Shown here one piece after another: positions 2,565 through 22,957 of a stretch of 64,000 nucleotides of DNA. The stretch is from Promethearchaeota archaeon. Its GTDB lineage: Archaea; Asgardarchaeota; Lokiarchaeia; Sigyniarchaeales; SOKP01. The DNA is taken from the NCBI GenBank assembly GCA_016839705.1, contig JAEOTR010000032.1, positions 22,464 to 86,463 on the forward strand. The letters run 5' to 3'. The notes under the pieces were generated by a model. The model made no database searches. It worked only from the letters and a program-made list of their open reading frames with translations, and had not been told where the DNA came from. Numbering within the stretch: the first letter of the stretch is position 1; each line of letters begins with the position of its first letter. Both the position numbers and the translations under genes were made by a program.

Positions 2565-3353
2565 ATGGTTGCGATAAAGGAAAGTAGAATGGAAGTATTA
2601 TTTGGATTTTTTGGGGCTTTATTCATTTTAGTTATGTTAATAATCTCAATAATTCTTTCTCCAGGATATTCCCCTTTAACAAGTACTATAAGTACACTTG
2701 GAGAAAGAGAAGCAAAAACGTTGTTTAGCATTGGATTTGTTGTAGCGGGTTCATTATTAATCCCTTTTTATATCTATCTGAAAAATGAATTAGTTTATCT
2801 GAAAAACCGTCTTAGAAAAATAGCGACAGGTGTAGCTATTTTTTCCAACATGTGTATTGCTTTAGTGGGAATAATTCCTGATAAGGATTACCCCGGTGCT
2901 TTTCTTGCGTTTCATGCATTTGTAGCGGGTGTGAGTTTTATAGGAACCTCTATTTATATTGTGTTATATAGCCTTTTAATGTACTTAGGTCCAAAGTCTA
3001 CCATGTATAAGGGTCCACAATTTAAAAAATATCTTTCTTACTATGGCTTTTTTGTAGGAATAGTATTTGTAGTGTGGTTAACCAACCCGATAAATCCACC
3101 TTTAGAATGGGCAGTAGCAATACTCATACTTATTTGGATTTTAATTACGGCATTACAGTGTCTTTCATTTAAATTTTCTAAAATCCCGGGGGTATATTAT
3201 AAACGATCTCAATATCCTGAAAAAATAAAACTGTTTAAAGACGCGATCCATGTTTTAGAGAATCTAGAAATGGGAGATGAGCCAATTTTGGACACATTAA
3301 AAGACAATATTGAATATATCGAAAGTCAAATGGAAAAAAACCAAAACAAATGA
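2565..3353 (+). CDS. Multi-pass membrane protein, DUF998-like
   Basis: About 6 TM helices; PGYSP..TISTLG and His-containing TM motif; overlaps the next gene by ATGA. Confidence 0.65.
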   Translation: MVAIKESRMEVLFGFFGALFILVMLIISIILSPGYSPLTSTISTLGEREAKTLFSIGFVVAGSLLIPFYIYLKNELVYLKNRLRKIATGVAIFSNMCIALVGIIPDKDYPGAFLAFHAFVAGVSFIGTSIYIVLYSLLMYLGPKSTMYKGPQFKKYLSYYGFFVGIVFVVWLTNPINPPLEWAVAILILIWILITALQCLSFKFSKIPGVYYKRSQYPEKIKLFKDAIHVLENLEMGDEPILDTLKDNIEYIESQMEKNQNK

Positions 3354-4357
3354 AAGCGGCAGTATTTGATGGAGAAGAATTGGAAATAAAAACTGTGGCA
3401 GATCCTAGAATATCAGATACAAAAGTATTAATTAACGTTAAAAGCGTTGGATTATGTGGAACCGATATAGCTATAATTAAAAAATCTTTACCTAGTCCAA
3501 CACCTATAATTTTAGGGCATGAATTTGCAGGTGATGTAGTAAAGATAGGAGATAATGTTGATCCAAAATGGCTTAATAAAAGAGTGACGTCTGAAATAAA
3601 TACTAATATTGATTTTAGCTGTTTCTACTGCAAAAAGGGGAAATATACTCAATGCGTATCAAGAAAAGCATTAGGGATAGATATTGATGGGGCCTTAGCT
3701 GAATATATAGCATTGGAATCATATTTACTTCATGAAATCCCAGATTCAATCTCATATGATGATGCCACATTCATCGAACCATTAGCAGCAGCATATCAAA
3801 TATTCGAAACAATGCCATTGGATGCAAATGATAAAGTGATGGCTATATTTGGGCTTGGGAAATTAGGATTGCTAATTACACAAATAGCATTGCTTAAAGG
3901 TCTAAAATTAATTGTTGTTGATAGTTCTCATAAAAAACTAAAATTAGCAAAAAAACTTGGTGCGCAAAAAGTACTTAACAGATTTGATGGTCCTTACGTT
4001 CCTGATTGGATAAAAAGTCTTACAAGGGGGCTAGGTGCTGATATAACTATAGACGCAACAGGCAACCCTCTAGCAATAAAAGATGTAATTGCTTCATGTA
4101 GAACCCTTGGAAAAGTACATTTAAAAAGTACGCATGGTCTTGACACTTCTATTAATTTAACTGATGCCATTGTGCGCGAGTTAACGCTCTATACTAGTAG
4201 ATGTGGACCATTTGATAAAGCTATACAAGGATTAAAAGATGGAACGATTGATGTTGAAAAATTGATTTCTAAAAAATATCCATTAAAGGACATTGATAAA
4301 GCTATAGATTTTAATAATATCTCCCAAGACCATATTAAAACAATTATTCATATATAA
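3350..4357 (+). CDS. Zn-dependent medium-chain alcohol dehydrogenase
   Basis: GLCGTD, GHEFAG, CxxC..C structural Zn site, GLGKLG Rossmann motif. Confidence 0.9.
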   Translation: MKAAVFDGEELEIKTVADPRISDTKVLINVKSVGLCGTDIAIIKKSLPSPTPIILGHEFAGDVVKIGDNVDPKWLNKRVTSEINTNIDFSCFYCKKGKYTQCVSRKALGIDIDGALAEYIALESYLLHEIPDSISYDDATFIEPLAAAYQIFETMPLDANDKVMAIFGLGKLGLLITQIALLKGLKLIVVDSSHKKLKLAKKLGAQKVLNRFDGPYVPDWIKSLTRGLGADITIDATGNPLAIKDVIASCRTLGKVHLKSTHGLDTSINLTDAIVRELTLYTSRCGPFDKAIQGLKDGTIDVEKLISKKYPLKDIDKAIDFNNISQDHIKTIIHI

Positions 4358-4502: not shown

Positions 4503-6332
4503 ATGGTTAATGATGAAATACCAGAGCCTAAATCAGAAACCAAGAATAATTTTATACGGGAAGACATACAGTTTCAGTATTTCTGGTATTTATTCATCTT
4601 TTTTACTATTTACCTTACATCATATATTGTTCCAGCCTTTTTATTTATGAGTTATATCTTTCTCTTTTTCTTACCTAATTTTTTAGACACATCTAGTTTC
4701 ATAGCACTATTTACTGAAATAAAGCCAATTCTAGCATTAGTATCAATGCCCTTAGTTATTATAGGCTGTTATCTTATTCGATTATTTTTTGTTGGGCTAA
4801 TGACACGATTTTTTTGGAGATTGACTGAAAAAAAGTGTCCCAGTAAAGATGGAATAATACCAAGGAATTTTCCCAGTAGAACTCTTAATTATTATCATAT
4901 TCGAAGTTTCTTGATAAAATATGGAAAGAATACTTTTACTAAGGGAGCTTTCCCTTGGTTAAGCAATTGGTTATATAATTTTGTTGGTTCAAGTGTGATA
5001 GGAAAGGGATCAACATTTGAGGAAAGCATAGGCAACGAAAAGTTTGGAATTGTCGGAAAAAATTGTTATTTTGGTGCTGGTGCTGCTTTGGCGACTCATC
5101 TGGTTGACGGAACTTTTGGAAATATAAATTATTTCCATGTGAAAATTGGAGATAATGTTACCGCTGCTGCGGGAAACCTAGTTGCCGCAGGATCAGAGGC
5201 ATATGATAATTCTTATCTACTACCGATAGCTTCTGCAGGAAAACATAGCTTATTAAAAGGAAATAATTACTATTGGGGAATTCCATTAAGGAAAATATTT
5301 AGAAAAAAAACTATGGAATTTTTAGATTTAACACCAAAGGAATTAGAGATAAATGCAAATATCGTGGGATATACTGATAAAAAAGTATTGGAGAAATTAA
5401 AAAGTGAGAAATCTTTAGAGCCACCTGAGGAAATCATCCGCACCGAAACAGAAGAAAGTCTAGATAATGAGAAAGAAATTGATATAAATGATTTAAGTGA
5501 AGAAGATTTAGCCTTAGATTTCACAACAAGTAGTGCAATTTCACGAGTGAACATAAAGTTTTTAGTAGTTTACATTCCAATTTTTTGGTTGTCTGGTATG
5601 TTGGATACGATAATTTTTTATACATTTATTTCCTTGGTAAGCAATAAATTTGTAATGATATTCTTCCTTCCAACGATTATTATTATTATGTGGTTCATTT
5701 TTATATTAGGGTGTTTCTTTTTCAGCAAATTATTCCTAGTCTTAATTAACTTAATACATAAACCAAAAGAGGGAATATTTAGAGCGGAAATTGGAGATAC
5801 TGATTTTGAATTTTGGAGCTTGCGTACCGAAATAAAAAAAATAGTATTATGGCTTTTACGTAATTGGCCCCTTCCTTGGGCGGATATATTAGCATTTAAA
5901 TTTTTCGGAGTAAAAATGACCTTATCAAGTTCATTATATGATTCTTGGTGCGATAGTGAATTTATAACATTCGGGAGAAGAGTCTTAGTTGGACAGGGTG
6001 TGACGATTATGTCTTCAATGGTGATAGGTAAATACTTAATAATTAAGAATGTTATATGCGGTGATTATTCACTTATAGGAGGTCATTCCACAATCGCACC
6101 AGGTACAATTATAGGGGAGGATACTTTTGTCAGTGCTCTTTCTACATCTGTGTATTCTCAGATCCTTGAACCGGGATGGATCTATATTGGAGTCCCTTGC
6201 ATTAAACTAAAACCAAACAAATATGCTGAATCTCAAAGAGAAATATTAGTTAAAAGAGACGTAGATGAAGAGAGGAAATTTGAGATTGAACATGAAGTTA
6301 ACATTGATGAAGATAAGAAAGATCTCTTATAA
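4503..6332 (+). CDS. Membrane protein with two [2TM + left-handed beta-helix acyltransferase-like] modules (Pls/PosA terminal-region-like), paralog 1
   Basis: Two hydrophobic hairpins, each followed by hexapeptide repeats (IGKGS, VGKNC, IGDNV; IGGHSTIAPGTIIGEDT) ending YWGIP / YIGVP; close paralog of 9747-11621. Confidence 0.75.
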   Translation: MVNDEIPEPKSETKNNFIREDIQFQYFWYLFIFFTIYLTSYIVPAFLFMSYIFLFFLPNFLDTSSFIALFTEIKPILALVSMPLVIIGCYLIRLFFVGLMTRFFWRLTEKKCPSKDGIIPRNFPSRTLNYYHIRSFLIKYGKNTFTKGAFPWLSNWLYNFVGSSVIGKGSTFEESIGNEKFGIVGKNCYFGAGAALATHLVDGTFGNINYFHVKIGDNVTAAAGNLVAAGSEAYDNSYLLPIASAGKHSLLKGNNYYWGIPLRKIFRKKTMEFLDLTPKELEINANIVGYTDKKVLEKLKSEKSLEPPEEIIRTETEESLDNEKEIDINDLSEEDLALDFTTSSAISRVNIKFLVVYIPIFWLSGMLDTIIFYTFISLVSNKFVMIFFLPTIIIIMWFIFILGCFFFSKLFLVLINLIHKPKEGIFRAEIGDTDFEFWSLRTEIKKIVLWLLRNWPLPWADILAFKFFGVKMTLSSSLYDSWCDSEFITFGRRVLVGQGVTIMSSMVIGKYLIIKNVICGDYSLIGGHSTIAPGTIIGEDTFVSALSTSVYSQILEPGWIYIGVPCIKLKPNKYAESQREILVKRDVDEERKFEIEHEVNIDEDKKDLL

Positions 6333-6425
6333 ACAATTTATCGGAAAAAACGCAAAGAGCGTTGCCGCTATTACTGTTCTACGATAATATTATCATAACA
6401 TTTAAGATGGAATGTAATTAAACCA

Positions 6426-7097
6426 TCATTTTAATAATGTTCTCAAATATCTTAACCATTTATTGCGAGGCGCTTTAGCTTTATACCAATCATAATTGGA
6501 ATCATCACCAAAAGGTTGATACTCCGTGTAATAAGCTTGGTCTTCATTAATATTGTCAATCTGTTGCTCAAGTAAAGCTATAAGGTTTTTTATGTCCTCT
6601 TGATGTTGACGAGATAACATGAATTTATCTCTTTCAGTAATATTTTCACTAGGATATTTACCGTTAAAGGAAAGAGTCAAAGAATGACTATAACGTTTAA
6701 TGGTTTGTTTCAAATTCGGATGGTTTAATACGATTTCTCTCGCTCTATCTTTATATTTTGAAGTACCATCAAACATGATGTCGAGACATGTATGGTAGTC
6801 TCTCAAATCAATCATGACCGTCTCTATTAATTCATTCCATGTAATTCCATAATTATACCGACAGGCACGTTGATATATCCCTCTAAGAGCCTCTAATGAG
6901 TCGGAATTATTTATTTTTACAAGAGCATCAATGATTTGCGTATCCCTTTCCAAGTTACATAATTGGAAAAGCACTCTAACAGATTCTAAATCCCCTTTTT
7001 TTATTAATTTATTTATTTCTTTTTTCCTTGTTTTTGGGCTTGCTTGCCTTAGCTTATTAAACTTCTCTAATTTCTTGCCAGTAAAAAATCTATGCAT
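6426..7097 (-). CDS. Hypothetical helical (HEAT-like) protein
   Basis: 223-aa ATG ORF; pattern IIDALVKINNSDSLEAL is HEAT-like. Confidence 0.55.
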   Translation of the reverse strand: MHRFFTGKKLEKFNKLRQASPKTRKKEINKLIKKGDLESVRVLFQLCNLERDTQIIDALVKINNSDSLEALRGIYQRACRYNYGITWNELIETVMIDLRDYHTCLDIMFDGTSKYKDRAREIVLNHPNLKQTIKRYSHSLTLSFNGKYPSENITERDKFMLSRQHQEDIKNLIALLEQQIDNINEDQAYYTEYQPFGDDSNYDWYKAKAPRNKWLRYLRTLLK

Positions 7098-7200
7098 TGA
7101 TACTCTCTATTTCTTTGATTTTAATTTTTATATTCAATTTTAATAAACTTTAGATTAATTTAAGTATTAATGAAATATTTGGTGAAATTCAAAAATTATT

Positions 7201-7377
7201 CTAATCTAATTGGTTTCCACAATTTTCACAATATTTATTAATTTTTAAGTTTTCAGAGCCACAATAATGACAAATTATTTTTTCTGTTTCTTGTCTAGGT
7301 CTTGGCTGATATATAGGTTCTGGTTGATACACAGGTTGTGCTTGGTAAGATGGGAGTGCTGGGTTTTTTTTAAATAT
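7201..7377 (-). pseudogene. Pro/Gln-rich linker plus C-terminal zinc ribbon, probable 3' gene remnant
   Basis: Reads IFKKNPALPSYQAQPVYQPEPIYQPRPRQETEKIICHYCGSENLKINKYCENCGNQLD*; in-frame TGA just upstream (7378-7380) and no in-frame ATG. Confidence 0.55.
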
Positions 7378-7614
7378 TCATATTTAAATAAAAAATTTCA
7401 GGAATGGTAAATTCAGCGTCTGATTTCAATTTCGAATAACATTTCATATAAAATTTGATTCTTTATTTTAATTTAGAAAAAACGTAAAATATCTCATAGT
7501 GCTAAAATATTTCAAGGAAAATATTGTTCCTATAGTAAAATTTTTTTTTAAGACAACTTTTAAGAGAATATGTATCGAAAAACTTTGTATCGAAATATTG
7601 GAAGGTGAAACAAA

Positions 7615-9159
7615 ATATCTGTTAAAAATCTTCCATTAACGAGAGAAAATATACCGTTTGAACGACTTTTTAACCCACGTGCGATAGTAATAATTGGTGT
7701 TTCAAAATTAAACCCATCTGGAGCAACTCAATATGTTCATGCATTGAAGGGTGCTCAATTTCCGAATCCAATTTATCTTGTAAACCCGAAATATATTGAT
7801 GAGGATTTAATGGGATATAAGTTTTATGATTCTATATCTTCAATACCAGATGAAACACCAGTTGATCTTGCTATAATAGCGGTACCTGCACAATTAACTC
7901 CTTCGATTATTGAGCAATTAGGTAAAAAAGGAGTTTCATTTGCCCACATATTTAGTAGTGGATTCTCTGAATTAGATACTGAATTTGATAAAAAAGGTAA
8001 AAAACTAGAAGAAGAACTAATCAGAAATGCTTCAAGATATGGAATACGTATCCTCGGTCCCAATTGTATGGGCATAGTTGCTCCAAAATCAAATCTTACT
8101 TTCTTAATGTCATTTAGGTCAATGCAAGAAGCAAATAAAGAATTCGATTCAAAAAATATTGAAGGTTTAGACGATCTTGGAAATTTAATAAATAACGGGC
8201 AAGTAGCTTTTATATCACAAAGTGGGGGGATTGCATTCACCCATGGAATGCTTTCACATTCATTAGGTTATAGTTTTTCAAAAATCGTCTCCCTTGGTAA
8301 TCAAATTGATTTGGATTTACTTGATTTTCTTCGGTATTTTAAAGATGATCCAGAGACAAAAATAATATCAATGTATATTGAAAATATTAAAAGAGAGGGG
8401 AATGAGTTTGTTCGATTATTAAAAGAGACAACTGCTAAGAAGCCTGTAATTATATGGAAAGGTGGTATTTTCCAAACGGGTCATCAAGCAGTTATGAGTC
8501 ATACAGGGGGATTAGCGGGTAATTATAAAATGTGGGAATCAATGGCATGTCAAACTGGAGTAATTCTAGTAGATAATTTTGTAGAATTAACAGATATGAT
8601 ACAAACATCTCTTACTTATCCATTTCCACAAACCTTAGGTACAGCAGTACTATCTATGAGCGGGGGTACAGCGGTGGAAAGTACTGATGAAGTTGAACGG
8701 AATGGTTTACTTATGCCTCTTTTAACGCAAGAAGTGACACAAAAAATTAACCAATTTATCCCAGAAATTAACTCTAATTTAAAAAATCCGTTAGAATTCG
8801 GAGGAAAGAACAGTTTAGAACATACTGTTAAAATTATCAAGATGTTGGGAGAAGAACCTCAATTTTCCTCCATAATAATGGCAAGTTCTCCAGAATATCT
8901 TGTTTTTCGAAGAGGAAATAGCTTGGATGATTATATTAAAGCAATTTCCAATGCTTTACCTCCTCACTCGGGCAAAATACTATTGTGTGTTGCCAGCAGT
9001 ATGAATATGTTTGAGCAAGGGATAAAAATGAACCTCGAATTTAGTTCCAAATCTCTATCCAATGGATTTGTAGTATATCGTTCTACAGCAGCAGCAGCAA
9101 AATCTTGTTATCGCTGGTGGAAATACGGAAAGTATTTAGAAAAAAGAAAGATTGTTTAA
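7615..9159 (+). CDS. ADP-forming acyl-CoA synthetase alpha subunit (CoA-binding / succinyl-CoA ligase-like)
   Basis: LFNPRAIVIIGVS (upstream of the ORF-track start 7744), VDLAIIAVPA, GPNCMG, SQSGG, SLGNQID, catalytic SHTGGLAG; frame open from 7609, probable start ATA 7615. Confidence 0.85.
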   Translation: MSVKNLPLTRENIPFERLFNPRAIVIIGVSKLNPSGATQYVHALKGAQFPNPIYLVNPKYIDEDLMGYKFYDSISSIPDETPVDLAIIAVPAQLTPSIIEQLGKKGVSFAHIFSSGFSELDTEFDKKGKKLEEELIRNASRYGIRILGPNCMGIVAPKSNLTFLMSFRSMQEANKEFDSKNIEGLDDLGNLINNGQVAFISQSGGIAFTHGMLSHSLGYSFSKIVSLGNQIDLDLLDFLRYFKDDPETKIISMYIENIKREGNEFVRLLKETTAKKPVIIWKGGIFQTGHQAVMSHTGGLAGNYKMWESMACQTGVILVDNFVELTDMIQTSLTYPFPQTLGTAVLSMSGGTAVESTDEVERNGLLMPLLTQEVTQKINQFIPEINSNLKNPLEFGGKNSLEHTVKIIKMLGEEPQFSSIIMASSPEYLVFRRGNSLDDYIKAISNALPPHSGKILLCVASSMNMFEQGIKMNLEFSSKSLSNGFVVYRSTAAAAKSCYRWWKYGKYLEKRKIV

Positions 9160-9221
9160 TAAAAAAGACCACCTTTATGTATTCAATCTTACTTTTCTTT
9201 TCAGTTTTAATAATACTAATT

Positions 9222-9611
9222 TTATTGGAGTCCTAATTCTTGTTTTAAAAATCTCGATAAATCTTCGCATGTTTCTTTTAATTCAGTTTCATCCTGATAA
9301 AATAGATGAGGTCTAGGACAATCATTATCATAAATACAATTATTTTCTTGAAAATTATAAATTAATGGGTAAAATCTACATCCTTGAGGGCGATATTCAT
9401 ATATTTTACATTCCTTTGAAAGAGAGTCTAAGAAAATGCAGTGATCCTCATTATTTTTTAATTGAAAAAACCCATCTCTATTTTTAAATACGAAATCATT
9501 TTTTTGTAGATTTTTAGTGGAATTTTTCATAATTCTATTAATATCACTCTCAGAAAGAATCATTTCAGTTCTTAAACAACATTCTCCGCAATTTTCACAC
9601 TTATTTTTCAT
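9222..9611 (-). CDS. YkgJ-family cysteine-cluster (CxxCxxCC) protein
   Basis: CENCGECC, HCIFL, CKIYEYRPQGCRFYP. Confidence 0.88.
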   Translation of the reverse strand: MKNKCENCGECCLRTEMILSESDINRIMKNSTKNLQKNDFVFKNRDGFFQLKNNEDHCIFLDSLSKECKIYEYRPQGCRFYPLIYNFQENNCIYDNDCPRPHLFYQDETELKETCEDLSRFLKQELGLQ

Positions 9612-9746
9612 ATATTTTTATTAAAAGTATTAATCATAAATTTAAAGGGATAATAAATATCTTATAAAGTATATTAAGAATCAATTGCTTTTTAATTGAG
9701 TAAATGTTAATGAGTTGCATAGTATAACAATTTTCAATGAAAACTT

Positions 9747-11621
9747 ATGGTAACAATGAGCGAACAAGTTGACGAAAGCGAACCATCGAATTTGGATACT
9801 CCTGAAAATCAAGTTTTAAAAGAAGAGGTTAAACTTCAATTTTATTTGTATATTCTTATCTTTAGTTTTATTTTTTATAGTTCATGGGTTATCCCTGGTG
9901 TCTTCTTTTTTTGGTACGTTCTTCAAGTTTTTCTTCCTAATTTCTTAGAAATTTCTAATTTTATATTACTTTTTACAGAGCCTAACTCTTTAATTGCATT
10001 CCTCTTGATGCCCATCGTTCTCATCGGATGTTACCTACTTCATCTAATCATTTTGGGGATATCAACTAAAATTTGTTGGAAAATTTCTGAAAAGATTTCC
10101 CCATCTAAGCCCGGAGTAATACCCAGGAACATTCGAAGTAAAGCCGTCAATTATTATCATATTAGAAGCTTTATGATCAAATATGGCAAAAATTCATTTA
10201 CAAAAGGTGTTTTTCCGTGGTTAAGTAATTGGTTCTTTAATACTGTAGGCTCAAACAAAATTGGTAAAGGCACAACTCTAGAAGAATCTGTAGGAATGGA
10301 TAAATTTATTGAAATTAAAAAAAATTGTTATATTGGAGTTAATAGTACTCTAGCCAGTCATCTTATTCAAGGAATTTTTGGAAATATCTCCTATTTTAAA
10401 ATTAAAGTAGGGGATAATGTTACAGCAGCCGCTATGAGTCAAATTGGACCAGGCTCTGAAATAAATAATGATTCGTTCCTACTCCCCCTAGCTTCTGCAA
10501 CTAAACATAGTGTCTTAAAAGGAAAAAACTATTATTGGGGAATTCCCTTAAGAAAAATATTTAGAAAGAAAACTATAGAATATTTAGACCTTACTCCAAC
10601 AGATTTGCAAAAAAATGAGAATATTTTGGGGTATACAGATAAAAAACTTCTAAAACAACTAAAGGCAAAAGAGATTCAAGAAACGTTGACTAACGAAGCT
10701 GTTAAAATAGAACAGGAAATTTCTAACTTGGATGAGAAAAGAATTGATGTTATTAAATTAGAAAAACAAGATTTAGCAATTGATTTCACTACTAGCTCTG
10801 CTATCAGTAGAGTTAATTTAAAATTTTTAGCAGTCTATTTACCAATTTTCTGGTTAGCAGGCTTATTAATCTCAATATTATGGTATTGGTATTTGCTTGA
10901 TCAAAAGTGGATACCTATTTTATCATTTCTACCTCTTATTTTGTTTGGCTCAATATATCTTTTCATTTTAGCATGCATACTTTTCAGCAAATTACTCTTA
11001 ATTCTTATAAATTTAATACATAAACCAAAAGAAGGTATTTTTAAAGCAGAGATTGGGGATACCGACTTTGAATTTTGGACTTTAAGAACTGAATTGAAAA
11101 AAATCGCATTGTGGTTTATGCGAAATTCACCACTTCCATGGACTGACGTAGTATCATTAAGATTATTTGGTGTGGACATGGATGCTTCAAGTCATCTAAA
11201 TGATGCATGGTGTGATGCCGAGTTTATTAAGTTTGGGAGAAAAAACTTAATCGGACAAGGAGCTACGATTATGTCGTCCATGGTGGTAGGCCGATATTTG
11301 ATTATAAAAAAAGTTGTATGTGATGATTATATCATGATTGGTGGTCATACTACGATTGCACCGGGGACGATCATGGGTAAAGAATCCGTGATCGGTGCTA
11401 TTTCTTCTACTACAGTAAATCAGGTGTTAGAACCAAATTGGGTATATTTTGGAATTCCTGCTATTAAATTAAAAGAAAATAAGTATGCAGAAGAGAGGAG
11501 AGATGTAATTTTAAAGCGTGATGTGGATGAGGCAAAAAAATTTGAGATAGAACATGAAGTAAATATAGATGATGATAAAAAAGATTTAATTAAAAAAGAA
11601 AAAGAGGTAAAAGAAGTATGA
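9747..11621 (+). CDS. Membrane protein with two [2TM + LbH] modules, paralog 2
   Basis: Shares identical stretches with 4503-6332 (NYYHIRSF, YYWGIPLRKIFRKKT, DFTTSSAISRVN); overlaps the next gene by ATGA. Confidence 0.75.
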   Translation: MVTMSEQVDESEPSNLDTPENQVLKEEVKLQFYLYILIFSFIFYSSWVIPGVFFFWYVLQVFLPNFLEISNFILLFTEPNSLIAFLLMPIVLIGCYLLHLIILGISTKICWKISEKISPSKPGVIPRNIRSKAVNYYHIRSFMIKYGKNSFTKGVFPWLSNWFFNTVGSNKIGKGTTLEESVGMDKFIEIKKNCYIGVNSTLASHLIQGIFGNISYFKIKVGDNVTAAAMSQIGPGSEINNDSFLLPLASATKHSVLKGKNYYWGIPLRKIFRKKTIEYLDLTPTDLQKNENILGYTDKKLLKQLKAKEIQETLTNEAVKIEQEISNLDEKRIDVIKLEKQDLAIDFTTSSAISRVNLKFLAVYLPIFWLAGLLISILWYWYLLDQKWIPILSFLPLILFGSIYLFILACILFSKLLLILINLIHKPKEGIFKAEIGDTDFEFWTLRTELKKIALWFMRNSPLPWTDVVSLRLFGVDMDASSHLNDAWCDAEFIKFGRKNLIGQGATIMSSMVVGRYLIIKKVVCDDYIMIGGHTTIAPGTIMGKESVIGAISSTTVNQVLEPNWVYFGIPAIKLKENKYAEERRDVILKRDVDEAKKFEIEHEVNIDDDKKDLIKKEKEVKEV

Positions 11622-12526
11622 GTGTTCCTAATACAATGCGTGTTGGTCCTTTTACACCAACAATATTGGCAAAAAAAAGATATTTAATATTATACATTTT
11701 CCTTATTTGGGCGAGTATAATTCCACTATTATTAGAGTTTTGGATTTATTGGCGTTTTTTATGGTATTTACCAAGTCCAGTTCATTTTTATACTTATCTA
11801 CCTCTGTTAATATTTTTGATGTATGTTACGATTGTATTTTCAGCAATATTTTTTACCAAGATACTTTTGGTAATAATCAACGCTATTCATAAACCAAAAG
11901 AGGGGACATTTTTAAGGATCCCTGCAGATAAAGATTTTCGATATTGGAGTCTGCGGAATACAATTAAACGGTGGCCAGTTTGGCTTGCACATAGATTTCC
12001 TTTTCCAGGGATTTTAGATAATATATGTTTTAAAGCTTTCGGGGTTAAAACTAAAATCTCAAATTCTTTATTCGAAGGATGGGTTGACACAGAATTTATT
12101 GAATTTGGAAAAGATGTTGTGGTGGGACAAGGAGCAATCGTTCAATCAGCAGTAATTATTGGGAATCTTCTGATTATTAGAAAGACAGTTATTGAAGATA
12201 ATATAAGAATAGGTTCCCATGCTATAGTTATGCCAGGCACCCATATTGGGCATAACTGTATCTTAGCTGCCAATAGTGTAACTACGGTTGGGCAAGTGCT
12301 AGAGCATGATTGGATTTATGTTGGCATTCCTGCTAAAAAATTCAAAGTTAATTATTTCTTTGAAGATGGTCTTGAAGATAAATTAGGCGATGTGGAAGAT
12401 GTAGAGGCATTAAGAAAGCGATATGAAGAAATATATACAAAACGCTATGATGAGCTCACCCATAAAGAACGAAAAGAATTAAAGAAAGAGAAGAAAGAAG
12501 AAGAAAAAAAGAGATGGGAACCTTAG
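11618..12526 (+). CDS. Membrane protein with one [2TM + LbH] module
   Basis: IHKPKEG..FRYWSLR motif shared with module 2 of the paralogs; hexapeptide repeats VVGQGA, IGSHAIVMPGTHIGHNC, YVGIPA. Confidence 0.75.
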   Translation: MSVPNTMRVGPFTPTILAKKRYLILYIFLIWASIIPLLLEFWIYWRFLWYLPSPVHFYTYLPLLIFLMYVTIVFSAIFFTKILLVIINAIHKPKEGTFLRIPADKDFRYWSLRNTIKRWPVWLAHRFPFPGILDNICFKAFGVKTKISNSLFEGWVDTEFIEFGKDVVVGQGAIVQSAVIIGNLLIIRKTVIEDNIRIGSHAIVMPGTHIGHNCILAANSVTTVGQVLEHDWIYVGIPAKKFKVNYFFEDGLEDKLGDVEDVEALRKRYEEIYTKRYDELTHKERKELKKEKKEEEKKRWEP

Positions 12527-13048: not shown

Positions 13049-14878
13049 TCAAAAATTGTATTCATGATTTAATATTTTCTTATAGATGTCTTCTGTTAAC
13101 GGCGTGTATTCTGACTTATTTGGAAGCATGACAAATAAAGCGTCATCAATTTTTTGAAGATTAATTCCTTCTTCTTTAAGTTCAATCTTTTTAAATTTAA
13201 AAGTATGTGTTGTTGAGAGACCTGACTTAAATCTAAGAAAAACAGGTATAGCATACGGAGCGAGATTGGCAAAAAAAAGCCCTTCCAGCTTCTTGAAGTC
13301 AAAATCATTAACACTAGATGTTGATACAATCGCTGCCATTCCTGCGCGTCCATCGGTAGCCGGTAATCTAACTCCATAAACGCATGACATTGAAATTTGA
13401 TCAAAAGTATTGAGGACCTCTTCTATTTCTGTAGTTGAAACATTATGTCCTTTCCATCGGAAAGTATCTCCGAGACGATCAACAAATTGAGCATGGTTAC
13501 AACCTTGATCCCGCATTAGATCACCAGTATTAAACCATACATCTCCTTCTTTAAAGACATTACGAAGTAATTTCGCTTCAGTTGCTTTTTCATCAGTATA
13601 TCCCCTAAATTTAGTAGTTTCTGTGCTTTCGAATAGGAGTAAGCCAACCTCGCCAGTACGTACTTTTTTCGAAAAACCTCTTTTGTTCTTTATAAGTTCA
13701 TCGTTCTCATGGTCATATCGTACAATAGCATAACCCCCCGTTGAATATCCGCAGGTGCAATCAAAGTTTAGTACATTAGCAAATGCACCGTTTCCTTCTG
13801 AAGAACCATAAAATTCACCAATATAGGGGATATCAAATCTCTTTTTAAAATCCTGCCATATGTCTGGACGAAGACCATTCCCAATCACTGCTCTTACAGG
13901 ATTATCCGAATCATCCGGTTTAGGAGGTTGATTCATTAAATAACGACATATCTCACCAACATAACTAAAGCAAGTAGCATTATATCTCCGAACATCATCC
14001 CAAAAATGACTAACGCTGAACTTACGAGCGATTGCTAAAGCGCTACCATTAACAAGAGCAGATGGCCAACCCGTCATTAGAGCTGTGCCATGAAAAAAGG
14101 GAAGTGAAATATATATTGTATCATCCGAGGTAAATTGTGCAATCATAGTCCCAAAAACATATCCCCCGAGAGTCACTCTAGCATGAGTTAAGAGTGCTGC
14201 TTTAGGTAATCCCGTTGTACCAGAAGTATAAATATAGGCAATAACATCTTGAGGTGTGATACTAGTCGTAGTTGTTGGATTTTCTACAGGAAGATTTAAA
14301 ACAGCTTTTGGGAGGTCGGTAAATCCCTCAGGAAGGTCCATCTCACCACTATCATGTACAAAACAGAGTTGTTTAGCATCTGATAAGTTGATATCTGATT
14401 TGATCTCATTGAAAGTGTCAAAACATTCTTCACCAACAACAATAATTTTGCCCGGAGTAAGGTTTAAACTATATACTAAGGTTTTTTTCCGCAGATCAGT
14501 ATTGATTAATGAAGATATTGACCCAATTTTAGCATTTGCACTATATAATAATAATAGTTCTATTCGGTTTTTTACTAAAACCTTTACAACATCACCCTTT
14601 TTCAAACCTAAAGAAATGAAGTAATTTGCATACTGGTTTACTTTATCATTAAATTCTTGATATGTAAGAACATTATCTTCAAATTTAATAGCGGGATTAT
14701 TAGGGAATTCTACGGCATTTTTTTCTAGAATTGATCCCCATGAAGTTTTATTTTCTGCAGATATTTTACCAATCTCTAGGATGAGTGGAGCATGTTTTTT
14801 AGTCCACTCTAGAAATCTTTTATTAAATTCTTCACTGTCAATAAGGTCTGAATTATTCTGTTTTGATATATCTAACAT
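13049..14878 (-). CDS. Long-chain acyl-CoA synthetase (FATP-like)
   Basis: YIYTSGTTGLPKAA, YVGEICRYL, EFYGSSEG, WFNTGDL, DRLGDTFRWKGHNVST. Confidence 0.93.
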   Translation of the reverse strand: MLDISKQNNSDLIDSEEFNKRFLEWTKKHAPLILEIGKISAENKTSWGSILEKNAVEFPNNPAIKFEDNVLTYQEFNDKVNQYANYFISLGLKKGDVVKVLVKNRIELLLLYSANAKIGSISSLINTDLRKKTLVYSLNLTPGKIIVVGEECFDTFNEIKSDINLSDAKQLCFVHDSGEMDLPEGFTDLPKAVLNLPVENPTTTTSITPQDVIAYIYTSGTTGLPKAALLTHARVTLGGYVFGTMIAQFTSDDTIYISLPFFHGTALMTGWPSALVNGSALAIARKFSVSHFWDDVRRYNATCFSYVGEICRYLMNQPPKPDDSDNPVRAVIGNGLRPDIWQDFKKRFDIPYIGEFYGSSEGNGAFANVLNFDCTCGYSTGGYAIVRYDHENDELIKNKRGFSKKVRTGEVGLLLFESTETTKFRGYTDEKATEAKLLRNVFKEGDVWFNTGDLMRDQGCNHAQFVDRLGDTFRWKGHNVSTTEIEEVLNTFDQISMSCVYGVRLPATDGRAGMAAIVSTSSVNDFDFKKLEGLFFANLAPYAIPVFLRFKSGLSTTHTFKFKKIELKEEGINLQKIDDALFVMLPNKSEYTPLTEDIYKKILNHEYNF

Positions 14879-15163: not shown

Positions 15164-16480
15164 TTAAAATTTGAGGAAAGATTGAAGAAATTCCCTCTTC
15201 TGTTCCATTGCTTCTTGGATTTCTGGACCTGGGGGATTACCTAGCATATTATTCATTCCAACTATGAGATTATTGGTACCCTTGAAATCCAGCACGTTCA
15301 TCTTTGTAGACCCTCCAACAATTACACATTCGCTTGACCTCAACAAGGCAATATGAACCCAGGAGGCATCAACATTTTGGACATTGTTGCCAAGAATCAA
15401 ATTGTTATAGGCAAAAAAACATCCAATACCATAATCTCCTGTACCACGAATTATGTTGTTAGAGATAAAAGCATCCTGCAACCCCTCTGTCCAAATTCCG
15501 CCATATATTGTATCTTCTAAAATAATTTTATTATGAGAGACAACTGCTTCGAGTGATTTGATTGGTGTATGATCCCATAAACCTATACCATCGGCAGAAT
15601 TTGACACCTTTAAATTATTATGAGTGATAAGCCACTGGGAAGGGGATAAAGATGGAGTTAAATCTCCTATTTGCCATACCCAAATACCATTTAAAAATTC
15701 TGTCTGGATATCATTACGAGAAATCTCAAATTTTGAATAGCTATTATCCATGTTAACTATTCCAAAAGTACCTCCTTTAAATGAATTTGACTTAATTTTC
15801 ATTTCAGCATTCATTAACACGTAAGCAGAAATACCTCCCCAAAGTGAGTCAAAGTTGCATTTAGTAATAATATGTCTCCCAGTTCCATAATTACATTCAA
15901 TTCCTAATCTAATATTAAAACTTTTAATATAAGGAAAAGGGGGAAATGTGCCTTCATGACCAGTACATTTAATACTTTCAATTCGGGAATTTATATCTCC
16001 TGTTATTAAGATAAGTGATACCAAATCGTAGGCTGGGTCAGGGTCGTACCATAGTTCAGCAGGTTTTTCAGGTGTAATATCAAAACTTAAATCAGAAATA
16101 CATACTTCTCCTCCTGCAAACGTAAACAAACTAGGTCCATAAGGACCAAGTACTCCTGGTGCTTCAGGATCTAATCCTCTAGGAACATCAATTTTGGTAA
16201 GATCCATGCCTGCCCCCATAAATGTACCATAGAAATTTTCAGCTAAAATTGCATTAGTATAAAATTGACCTAGAGTTAATTGAACAATGCTTCCTGGACC
16301 TGCTGCAATGGCATCATCGAATGCTGCTTGGATGTTTGCAGTATCATCTACACCTGTTGGAGATACAGTAAAAGTAGGTGAATCAGCGCGGACTAGTCCG
16401 ATTATCATAGTAAAAGTTCCAAATATCATTGCTAATGTAAAAATTCCGATTATTAGACTTGATTTTGTTTTCATTTTCAT
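15164..16480 (-). CDS. Secreted right-handed parallel beta-helix protein
   Basis: N-terminal signal/TM segment, DDTANIQAAFD motif, Asn-ladder repeats (ISRNDI, ITHNNL, ISNNII). Confidence 0.75.
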   Translation of the reverse strand: MKMKTKSSLIIGIFTLAMIFGTFTMIIGLVRADSPTFTVSPTGVDDTANIQAAFDDAIAAGPGSIVQLTLGQFYTNAILAENFYGTFMGAGMDLTKIDVPRGLDPEAPGVLGPYGPSLFTFAGGEVCISDLSFDITPEKPAELWYDPDPAYDLVSLILITGDINSRIESIKCTGHEGTFPPFPYIKSFNIRLGIECNYGTGRHIITKCNFDSLWGGISAYVLMNAEMKIKSNSFKGGTFGIVNMDNSYSKFEISRNDIQTEFLNGIWVWQIGDLTPSLSPSQWLITHNNLKVSNSADGIGLWDHTPIKSLEAVVSHNKIILEDTIYGGIWTEGLQDAFISNNIIRGTGDYGIGCFFAYNNLILGNNVQNVDASWVHIALLRSSECVIVGGSTKMNVLDFKGTNNLIVGMNNMLGNPPGPEIQEAMEQKREFLQSFLKF

Positions 16481-21973: not shown

Positions 21974-22957
21974 ATGGAGAAAAAATTCAAAACTTTATTT
22001 TTTATATATCTAATCTTTGTATTTTCAATAGTAACTATTCCGAGTATCATCATTTTTGCGGAATTTGCAAGTTTTAATAGGATTGATGAATCTCTTACAT
22101 ATAAATATTCATCTAACACCCCACCACTTGAAAAAGAACTGAATATAATTACTGATATCGGTATAATCGATATAAAATATGTTTCTCCCTCAGTAGATTA
22201 TCTTGTTAAAATAGATGTAGATATTGAAATGGCAGGTCCTAACTTAGGAAGTAAATCATACTTGGATTTTTATAGAATAGGGTGGGAAAACTTAACATCT
22301 CCATTAAATTTTACATTTGCATTAATTCCTGAGATGTTCGAAGATTTTTCAAGCTTACACATTACAAATACTCATATTAATATTCAGCTACGAGCAGATA
22401 TTGTTTTTAGCATAAATGCTTCTGTAAGTGAAGGGACTGTAAAACTTTCTGCTCTAGGAATTACTGTTAATGATTTATTCTTAAATGTGATTAATGGTGA
22501 TATAATTTATGATTTAACTAATTGTAAAGTTGAAGGTAATATATCTGGAACTGTTACTAATGGGAATATTACATTAAAAACTCATAATAATCAATATAAT
22601 CATAATAGTCTTTTGACTATTAAAAATGACGTTGGATATATTCTTTTTGATATTACCCAATTTGAAGAAATGGGAGCCAATGTTACAGGAACGGGAATAA
22701 CAAAAACGGGAAATATCTCAATAATCTATAAAGATTTTTCATCTAATATTGGAGCTCGATTTGTATTATATAATAAAACCACTCACGGTCTTGAAGGACA
22801 AAATTCATGGATAGGATTCGAAAGGGATCTTTTACCATTAAGTGCAGGACAATATTATAATTCCACAGATTTTCCTTCTCAAAATAATTATATTTTCTCT
22901 CTATTTAAATGGGATAGCGGTGATTATCTGTGGAATCTTTATAGCATCCCAACTTAA
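21974..22957 (+). CDS. Membrane-anchored beta-solenoid (DUF4097/adhesin-like) protein
   Basis: N-terminal TM; repeated xxG.I.L strands (TDIGII, SEGTVKL, INGDII, TNGNITL, KTGNISI); distant paralog of 33947-35038. Confidence 0.6.
   Translation: MEKKFKTLFFIYLIFVFSIVTIPSIIIFAEFASFNRIDESLTYKYSSNTPPLEKELNIITDIGIIDIKYVSPSVDYLVKIDVDIEMAGPNLGSKSYLDFYRIGWENLTSPLNFTFALIPEMFEDFSSLHITNTHINIQLRADIVFSINASVSEGTVKLSALGITVNDLFLNVINGDIIYDLTNCKVEGNISGTVTNGNITLKTHNNQYNHNSLLTIKNDVGYILFDITQFEEMGANVTGTGITKTGNISIIYKDFSSNIGARFVLYNKTTHGLEGQNSWIGFERDLLPLSAGQYYNSTDFPSQNNYIFSLFKWDSGDYLWNLYSIPT

Follow-up and report, generated by a model that had tools for sequence, protein, structure and literature searches.

What kind of enzyme is encoded by three neighboring genes for membrane-anchored left-handed beta-helix (LbH) proteins in an Asgard archaeon, and do their products act together? 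We addressed this question for a locus of a Promethearchaeota archaeon on contig JAEOTR010000032.1 (assembly GCA_016839705.1), using a stretch of 64,000 nt (positions 22,464 to 86,463 of the contig) that we refer to as the window. All three genes lie on the + strand. The product of the first, P0002 (9747-11621, 624 aa), contains two modules, here termed M1 and M2; that of the second, P0003 (11618-12526, 302 aa), is a single module, M3. These are the large and small subunits of a 2+1 set. The third, P0001 (4503-6332, 609 aa), is another M1-M2 gene, which has no M3 gene of its own. Taken as a whole, our data are best explained by one M1-M2-M3 membrane ring with a single active site at an M1 interface, which would catalyze acyl-coenzyme A (acyl-CoA)-dependent acylation of a membrane-proximal acceptor. 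We assign this reading a probability of roughly 0.65.

Open reading frame (ORF) calls and translations reproduced the coordinates and lengths given for the three genes in the initial annotation, which had been made from the sequence alone, together with the ATGA sequence at 11618-11621 (+ strand), in which the stop codon of the M1-M2 gene overlaps the start codon of the M3 gene. A GAGGT motif is found 10 nt 5' of this overlap, and the overlap suggests translational coupling of P0002 and P0003. The same annotation had described each module as two transmembrane (TM) helices followed by an LbH domain. Hydropathy, matches to the hexapeptide family PF00132, and the secondary structure of an AlphaFold2 (AF2) model all show this pattern: a hydropathy scan found two pairs of long hydrophobic helices in P0001, two in P0002, and one in P0003, each followed by hexapeptide repeats, and PF00132 scored 32.2, 38.2, and 38.6 bits in P0001, P0002, and P0003, respectively, against a gathering cut-off of 27. 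In P0002, M1 spans approximately residues 1 to 335 and M2 approximately residues 336 to 624. We found more than 400 homologues, many at 60 to 89% identity, in metagenome-assembled genomes (MAGs) labelled Promethearchaeota (Asgard) by NCBI, and some in MAGs labelled Loki-, Hod-, Hermod-, Thor-, or Odinarchaeota. Within the genus, the ratio of nonsynonymous to synonymous substitution rates (dN/dS) is approximately 0.07 to 0.18, although dS is saturated. These hundreds of homologues and the low dN/dS, read with that saturation in mind, show that the three genes are real and constrained rather than chance ORFs.

We split every copy in this genome into its individual modules and compared these with one another. 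They fall into three types. Type M1 comprises the first halves of P0002 and P0001 and a single-module protein, A1; type M2 comprises their second halves and A2; and type M3 comprises P0003 and A3. Identity is 47 to 63% within a type and 20 to 39% between types. In a phylogenetic tree, M1 and M2 each form a clade with 99% support, and the M2 clade branches from within M3-like modules. A1, A2, and A3 make up a fully split triad located 2.7 to 5.4 kb upstream of the window start (G000:C13:17089-19759, equivalent to L009:9090-11760), where they are encoded by three consecutive single-module genes of 303, 301, and 284 aa that overlap or abut one another. P0003 and A3 are 57% identical. In total, the genome contains 11 modules: the split triad, the 2+1 triad, the orphan M1-M2 protein P0001, and a divergent set consisting of E1 on contig 46 (L011:5671-6432, G000:C46) and D1 and D2 on contig 81 (L010:5802-7388, G000:C81).

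The three types differ at the position that corresponds to the active site of related acyltransferases. It had been noted at the outset that only the first module keeps a His there, reading ATHL or ASHL, with MSSM in the second module and QSAV in the third, and our module alignments gave the same result: M2 reads MSSM and M3-type modules read QSAV or QSSI, which places Ser or Ala in the catalytic column of both. The His of P0002 is His205 in M1 (motif LASHL, codon at 10359-10361, + strand), and pairwise and module alignments identify His199 of P0001 (motif LATHL, codon at 5097-5099, + strand) as its equivalent. All 89 aligned two-module homologues and all 17 aligned M1-type modules keep this His, and in this genome it occurs only in M1-type modules and in the divergent D1 and E1. 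When a profile of M1 modules was compared with the PDB, the His aligned with the first His of the GHPVHH motif of Escherichia coli galactoside acetyltransferase (1KQA, E = 1.6e-5), which we take to be His115, the general base of LacA. His205 is thus a putative general base. As in LacA-type enzymes, the active site is expected to lie at a subunit interface and would use a pantetheine thioester. The modules share the LbH fold and hexapeptide repeats with LacA-, Maa-, AntD-, and WcaF-like proteins; however, those proteins form soluble homotrimers, in which the three active sites are identical, whereas here three different membrane-anchored modules apparently share one site. Because only M1 keeps the general-base His, a ring of the three modules would have one active site. 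The expectation of one His-bearing module per triad is borne out for M1-M2-M3.

We typed 20 further loci from 17 Asgard genomes module by module, giving a total of 22 loci in 18 genomes. Read along the direction of transcription, the module order is always cyclic 1-2-3, while the way in which the modules are distributed over genes varies: three separate genes for M1, M2, and M3; an M1-M2 gene followed by an M3 gene; an M3 gene followed by an M1-M2 gene (genome G132); and an M3-M1 fusion followed by a gene of the M2 clade. One locus from the sister family has only two visible modules. In an exhaustive search with P0003, we also found M3-M1 fusions of approximately 540 aa and an Asgard protein of 797 aa, P0124, in which M3, M1, and M2 are joined in a single chain, a circular permutation of M1-M2-M3. 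The claim that the one-module gene is conserved beside the two-module gene also held, with an adjacent M3 for 10 of the 13 M1-M2 genes; the other three are genus-specific second copies that lie within approximately 3.5 kb of an M1-M2 gene with its M3 gene. These differentiated units stay together, keep their cyclic order, and can fuse at any of the three junctions, a pattern that a closed M1-M2-M3 ring predicts and that independent homotrimers hardly explain. We regard the fusions and circular permutations as strong genomic evidence for such a single ring. The 2+1 hetero-pseudotrimer first proposed for this locus accordingly has strong comparative support: modules are orthologous by type, the cyclic order is conserved, and nature has fused the modules at more than one junction. 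Comparative genomics thus gives good support to a hetero-pseudotrimer that has one active site. Its putative physical form, a trimeric bundle with an interfacial active site, is proposed on the basis of the cyclic order and the fusions, together with the pTM values of 0.74 and 0.64 described below. In G132, a genome of the same genus, M3 is encoded first, with a 38-nt gap to the M1-M2 gene (L012:9541-12370), an order that would be one fusion step from the M3-M1 proteins seen elsewhere.

LbH acyltransferases are normally homotrimers, and the same genes might instead encode independent membrane-anchored acetyltransferases, each homotrimeric, with the adjacency of the genes resulting from tandem duplication. 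Besides this established habit of LbH enzymes, the dispersed single-module genes of other Asgard families and the orphan two-module gene without an adjacent M3 would fit such an arrangement. However, neither M2 nor M3 has the catalytic His in any homologue, which means that their homotrimers would lack a general base, and a two-module chain alone cannot close a threefold LbH bundle. The three types have also remained together, with their cyclic order unchanged, through fissions, fusions, and a circular permutation, and the ATGA coupling suggests co-translation of two of them. We consider independent homotrimers very unlikely.

Structure prediction gave a consistent picture of the module. The AF2 model of P0002, based on an 89-sequence alignment, had a predicted local distance difference test score (pLDDT) of 79 and a predicted template modeling score (pTM) of 0.74, and its secondary structure consists of two repeats of TM-TM-strand-helix-helix-LbH. 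We also modeled the natural fusion P0124, with an alignment made up of P0124, two chains of the 3-1-2 type, and rows from M1-M2 proteins; this model had three such repeats (pLDDT 73.8, pTM 0.64). The same elements have been described for the model of PosA (PMC10522769). Foldseek matched only soluble acetyltransferases of the GAT, MAT, and AntD types, which are acetyl-CoA-dependent (top matches at probability 1.0 and E of approximately 5e-6; query-normalized TM-score of ≤0.2). Foldseek and sequence searches of the PDB to April 2026 found no solved TM plus LbH triad.

The modules have weak matches to gamma-carbonic-anhydrase families and to the carbonic anhydrase and carbonic anhydrase-like (CA/CAL) subunits of respiratory complex I. 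The triad could accordingly be a non-enzymatic membrane LbH scaffold or channel, comparable to the gamma-carbonic-anhydrase-like heterotrimer attached to complex I, in which case the His would have a structural or metal-binding role, and the catalytic degeneration of two of the three modules would suit that role. The gamma-carbonic-anhydrase model NF050158, however, scored only 17 to 29 bits against a cut-off of 250, and the invariant His aligns with the general base of LacA, two results on which we rejected a gamma-carbonic-anhydrase assignment. The fold matches point instead to acetyl-CoA-dependent transferases, and no respiratory-complex genes are conserved near the triads in our survey of neighbors at the 22 loci. 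A scaffold or channel of this type seems to us barely credible.

The initial annotation had further proposed similarity to the terminal region of Pls, a bacterial poly-lysine synthetase. TIGR02353, the model of this region, is the first or second NCBIfam match of P0001, P0002, and P0003, with scores of 32.3, 48.7, and 35.2 bits against a cut-off of 423.1. These weak matches are non-specific on their own because the model also has matches below the cut-off in 13 of 14 control genomes. We rejected them as specific evidence for a relationship to Pls and used profile-profile comparison of whole modules instead. At that level the similarity stands. A hidden Markov model (HMM) of the Asgard modules found all three modules in each of 18 annotated Pls/PosA synthetases, and hhalign aligned the Asgard and Pls module profiles at 99.5% probability (E = 3e-22) over 182 columns, which span the second TM helix, the linker helices, and the whole LbH. 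The overall architecture is also alike: Pls/PosA has three modules (C1, C2, and C3) of two TM helices, two further helices, and an LbH, for a total of six TM helices, and the Asgard proteins have the same composition, reached across an operon rather than in a single polypeptide. The secondary-structure elements predicted here agree with those of the published PosA model (PMC10522769). In Pls/PosA, as in the Asgard triads, only one of the three modules has a His at the catalytic column, in this case C3 (QTHLFEDR).

The modules of Pls, of bacterial stand-alone proteins, and of the Asgard triads form three separate clades with 98 to 99% support in the SH-like approximate likelihood-ratio test (SH-aLRT). 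This tree rejects a one-to-one orthology of M1, M2, and M3 with C1, C2, and C3, since the modules group by lineage and not by position. Triplication and differentiation of the modules therefore seem to have been independent, or the modules homogenised; on the present tree, the Asgard and Pls triplications appear independent. Unlike Pls/PosA, the Asgard proteins have no adenylation (A) or thiolation (T) domain, as had been noted, and Pfam finds only hexapeptide families in P0001, P0002, and P0003. A search for longer homologues of P0002 found none fused to A/T domains, which is weak evidence, and the phosphopantetheine-binding carrier domain PF00550 was found nowhere in the genome, which is 93% complete, whereas 11 of 14 control genomes were positive. 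The Asgard set is split into 2+1 or 1+1+1 chains and has circularly permuted relatives, and the Asgard system is archaeal, with several sets per genome. Overall, the best description of the Asgard enzyme is that of a Pls-type TM-LbH triad in an archaeal version that is split and has no carrier.

This relationship raises the question of whether the triad could itself make a polymer. A carrier-less homopoly(amino acid) or polyamide synthase would receive its donor in trans, as an aminoacyl-CoA, aminoacyl-AMP, or aminoacyl-tRNA, and its product would be threaded through the six-helix bundle. The profile homology to Pls/PosA polymerization modules, which includes the second TM helix and the linker, and the shared layout of one His in three modules are in its favor, as are two carboxylate-activating enzymes encoded within 3 kb, one ADP-forming and alpha-like (7744-9159) and the other AMP-forming (13049-14878). 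However, the proteins have no fused A/T domain and the genome no PP-binding domain, the AMP-forming enzyme is an ordinary long-chain acyl-CoA synthetase that is not found beside the triads at the other 20 loci, the Asgard modules are not orthologous to C1 to C3, and the closest fused bacterial relative is encoded among sugar-modifying genes. We consider a polyamide synthase rather unlikely. More generally, polymerization in the manner of a nonribosomal peptide synthetase (NRPS) is the less likely option because the genome lacks a carrier domain and no activating enzyme is conserved in the vicinity.

The bacterial relatives of this kind are fused triads that stand alone and lack A/T domains: P0205; P0207, encoded in a Planctomycetales MAG; and P0222, which has an N-terminal short-chain dehydrogenase/reductase (SDR) domain. 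A relative from Omnitrophota is 71% identical to P0207. Like the Asgard triads, these proteins are carrier-less and consist of three modules of which one has the His, and hhalign aligned them with the Asgard modules at 99.6%. They differ in that all three modules form one chain, of which only the middle module (C2) has the His; in their much higher TIGR02353 scores of 168 to 184 bits; and in forming a separate clade in the tree. The apparent P0207 operon (L032:7971-16407) includes genes for a GT1-type glycosyltransferase, a GMC oxidoreductase, an SDR, and RmlA-, RmlD-, and RmlB-like proteins of dTDP-sugar metabolism. This operon and the SDR fusion of P0222 hint that carrier-less triads may acylate sugars or glycolipids.

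Based on these comparisons, we propose that P0002, contributing M1 and M2, and P0003, contributing M3, would form one pseudo-threefold membrane complex, with six bent TM helices in the membrane and three different LbHs side by side, presumably on the cytoplasmic face. The complex would resemble the C1-C2-C3 polymerization domain of Pls/PosA split over two chains and lacking A/T domains. Its single active site would lie at an M1 interface, and the degenerate partner modules M2 and M3 would supply the rest of the binding cleft and of the TM bundle. In the proposed reaction, an acceptor held at the membrane surface would have its hydroxyl or amino group activated by His205, and this group would then attack a thioester. 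Acyl-CoA, which has the same pantetheine arm as carrier proteins, would be the most likely thioester. Both the donor and the type of acceptor are inferred, and acyl-CoA-dependent acylation of a membrane-proximal acceptor is the most likely function on this basis.

Several observations weigh against this proposal. We infer, rather than see directly, that the packing is threefold and that His205 sits at an interface, and the alignment behind the P0124 model is thin over its M3 part. The catalytic residues of Pls are placed by alignment only. Both E1 and D1 of the divergent set keep the His, and thus one His per ring is not universal. Only a single bacterial genome provides the sugar context, which the Omnitrophota relative lacks. 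Finally, neither the 22 loci nor eight more distant Asgard triads had a conserved functional neighbor pointing to a substrate.

The other M1-M2 gene of the window (4503-6332) raises the possibility of a second version of the enzyme. P0001 and P0002 are 57% identical over their full length, and P0001 is the sister of P0002 in the tree for both modules. That P0001 is an intact second copy of the two-module subunit, as first suggested, is confirmed by its full length, by its retention of every invariant column of the 89-sequence alignment, and by a dN/dS of 0.13 to 0.17, which indicates purifying selection but was obtained with saturated dS. Two M1-M2 genes and a single M3 gene also occur at this locus in two other genomes of the genus, G132 and G049, with the order rearranged in one of them, whereas other genera have only one M1-M2 gene. 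The gene at 4503-6332 is thus a genus-specific duplicate of the large subunit. The suggestion of two alternative large subunits is plausible, given that three genomes of the genus keep two M1-M2 genes with one M3 gene and that both copies are under purifying selection. Among genus orthologues, identity is 78 to 83% for the M3 subunit compared with 61 to 69% for the large subunits; this higher conservation of M3 fits one small subunit serving two large ones, although it does not prove it. P0001 would most likely partner with the same M3, P0003, or with A3 of the upstream split triad, yielding a second enzyme variant.

We examined how widely the family is distributed in a sample of 151 genomes from the phylum, in which 44 genomes had matches at E ≤1e-10 and individual genomes had up to 12. 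Matches were present in all 25 sampled genomes of the family to which the window belongs and in both sampled genomes of a sister family in the same order (27 of 27). Three other families had only dispersed single-module genes. The module family is abundant and lineage-expanded in one Asgard order, reaching 11 to 12 modules per genome, and the literature that we searched contains no description of a split carrier-less triad of this kind.

In Asgard biology, the family probably modifies lipids or surface polymers, and each locus with two large-subunit genes and one small-subunit gene is a case of possible subunit sharing. Our searches of the PDB found no solved structure of a Pls-type polymerization domain, and the literature searched contained no established catalytic mechanism for one. 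The natural split version is a convenient dissection kit for the roles of the modules because its subunits are differentiated, one module bears the His, and circularly permuted fusions fix the order of the ring. A bolder idea is that the triads are a carrier-independent form of the Pls polymerization machine, that is, a minimal, self-contained membrane enzyme that either builds or exports a polymer or attaches acyl groups to archaeal lipids or to glycans of the cell surface. The large subunits would be exchangeable, with two M1-M2 proteins sharing one M3 to give combinatorial enzymes, and the expansion of the family in one Asgard order, to three or four sets in each genome, may contribute to the unusual cell envelope of that order. 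We hold this idea as a whole to be speculative and rather improbable.

The genes around the triad are shared mainly among close relatives. In the family to which the window belongs, a conserved block consists of genes for a protein of approximately 549 aa, a Ras-like GTPase, a Zn-dependent alcohol dehydrogenase (Zn-ADH), and a divergently transcribed CxxCxxCC protein, followed by the M1-M2 and M3 genes. In the window, a Ras-family small GTPase gene, a typical Asgard eukaryote-like signature, adjoins this block (1897-2442, - strand). Pfam and NCBIfam identify the Zn-ADH family protein (335 aa, 3350-4357, + strand), which is found at 10 of the 22 loci. The CxxCxxCC gene (PF03692 in Pfam, 129 aa, 9222-9611, - strand) is divergent from the M1-M2 gene and is found beside the triad at 11 of the 22 loci; because all 11 are from one taxonomic family, this linkage may be no more than a sign of close kinship. 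Around eight Asgard triads that are more distant, we found unrelated neighbors and no recurrent partner. Since the genomes that share the block are close kin and the distant triads have unrelated neighbors, the triad looks self-contained.

Three other genes of the window lie near the triad. The AMP-binding gene at 13049-14878 (- strand) is convergent with the 2+1 operon and encodes a long-chain acyl-CoA synthetase (NF006134, 717 bits against a cut-off of 625). We considered it as an A domain acting in trans and rejected it on this assignment and on the lack of a homologue beside the triads at any of the other 20 loci. The ADP-forming acyl-CoA synthetase alpha-like ORF at 7744-9159 (+ strand) was called from a TTG codon, and a similar gene recurs near only one other triad. 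The match of its CoA-binding domain starts at profile position 29 to 34, and translation of the gene probably begins 5' of all canonical start codons. A protein of 438 aa with right-handed beta-helix or NosD-like repeats, which is unrelated to the LbH modules, is encoded at 15164-16480 (- strand) and is probably a surface protein.

Further observations concern the other module loci. The split A1-A3 operon is flanked upstream by a gene for a DUF1295 membrane protein and downstream by carbon-nitrogen hydrolase and UvdE genes. In the divergent set, D1 and D2 adjoin each other and are followed by a gene for a metallophosphoesterase of 531 aa, and a RagA/Gtr1-like GTPase, another typical Asgard eukaryote-like signature protein, is encoded near them (L010:9528-10472). 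The M1-like E1 is unlinked to D1 and D2 and adjoins two GDPD genes and a gene for an MFS transporter. Elsewhere, a protein of 602 aa, P0198, is a fusion of an E1-type and a D1-type module. In genome G040, the M2 gene of a split triad was called at 216 aa after a 270-nt gap following M1 (L021:8643-8913), within an open frame of 311 aa; the short call could be due to a start codon that is not canonical or to a small insertion close to the 5' end. In genome G030, a B12-dependent ribonucleotide reductase of 1600 aa with intein, HNH, and LAGLIDADG domains is encoded directly upstream of a split triad (L025:1255-6057).

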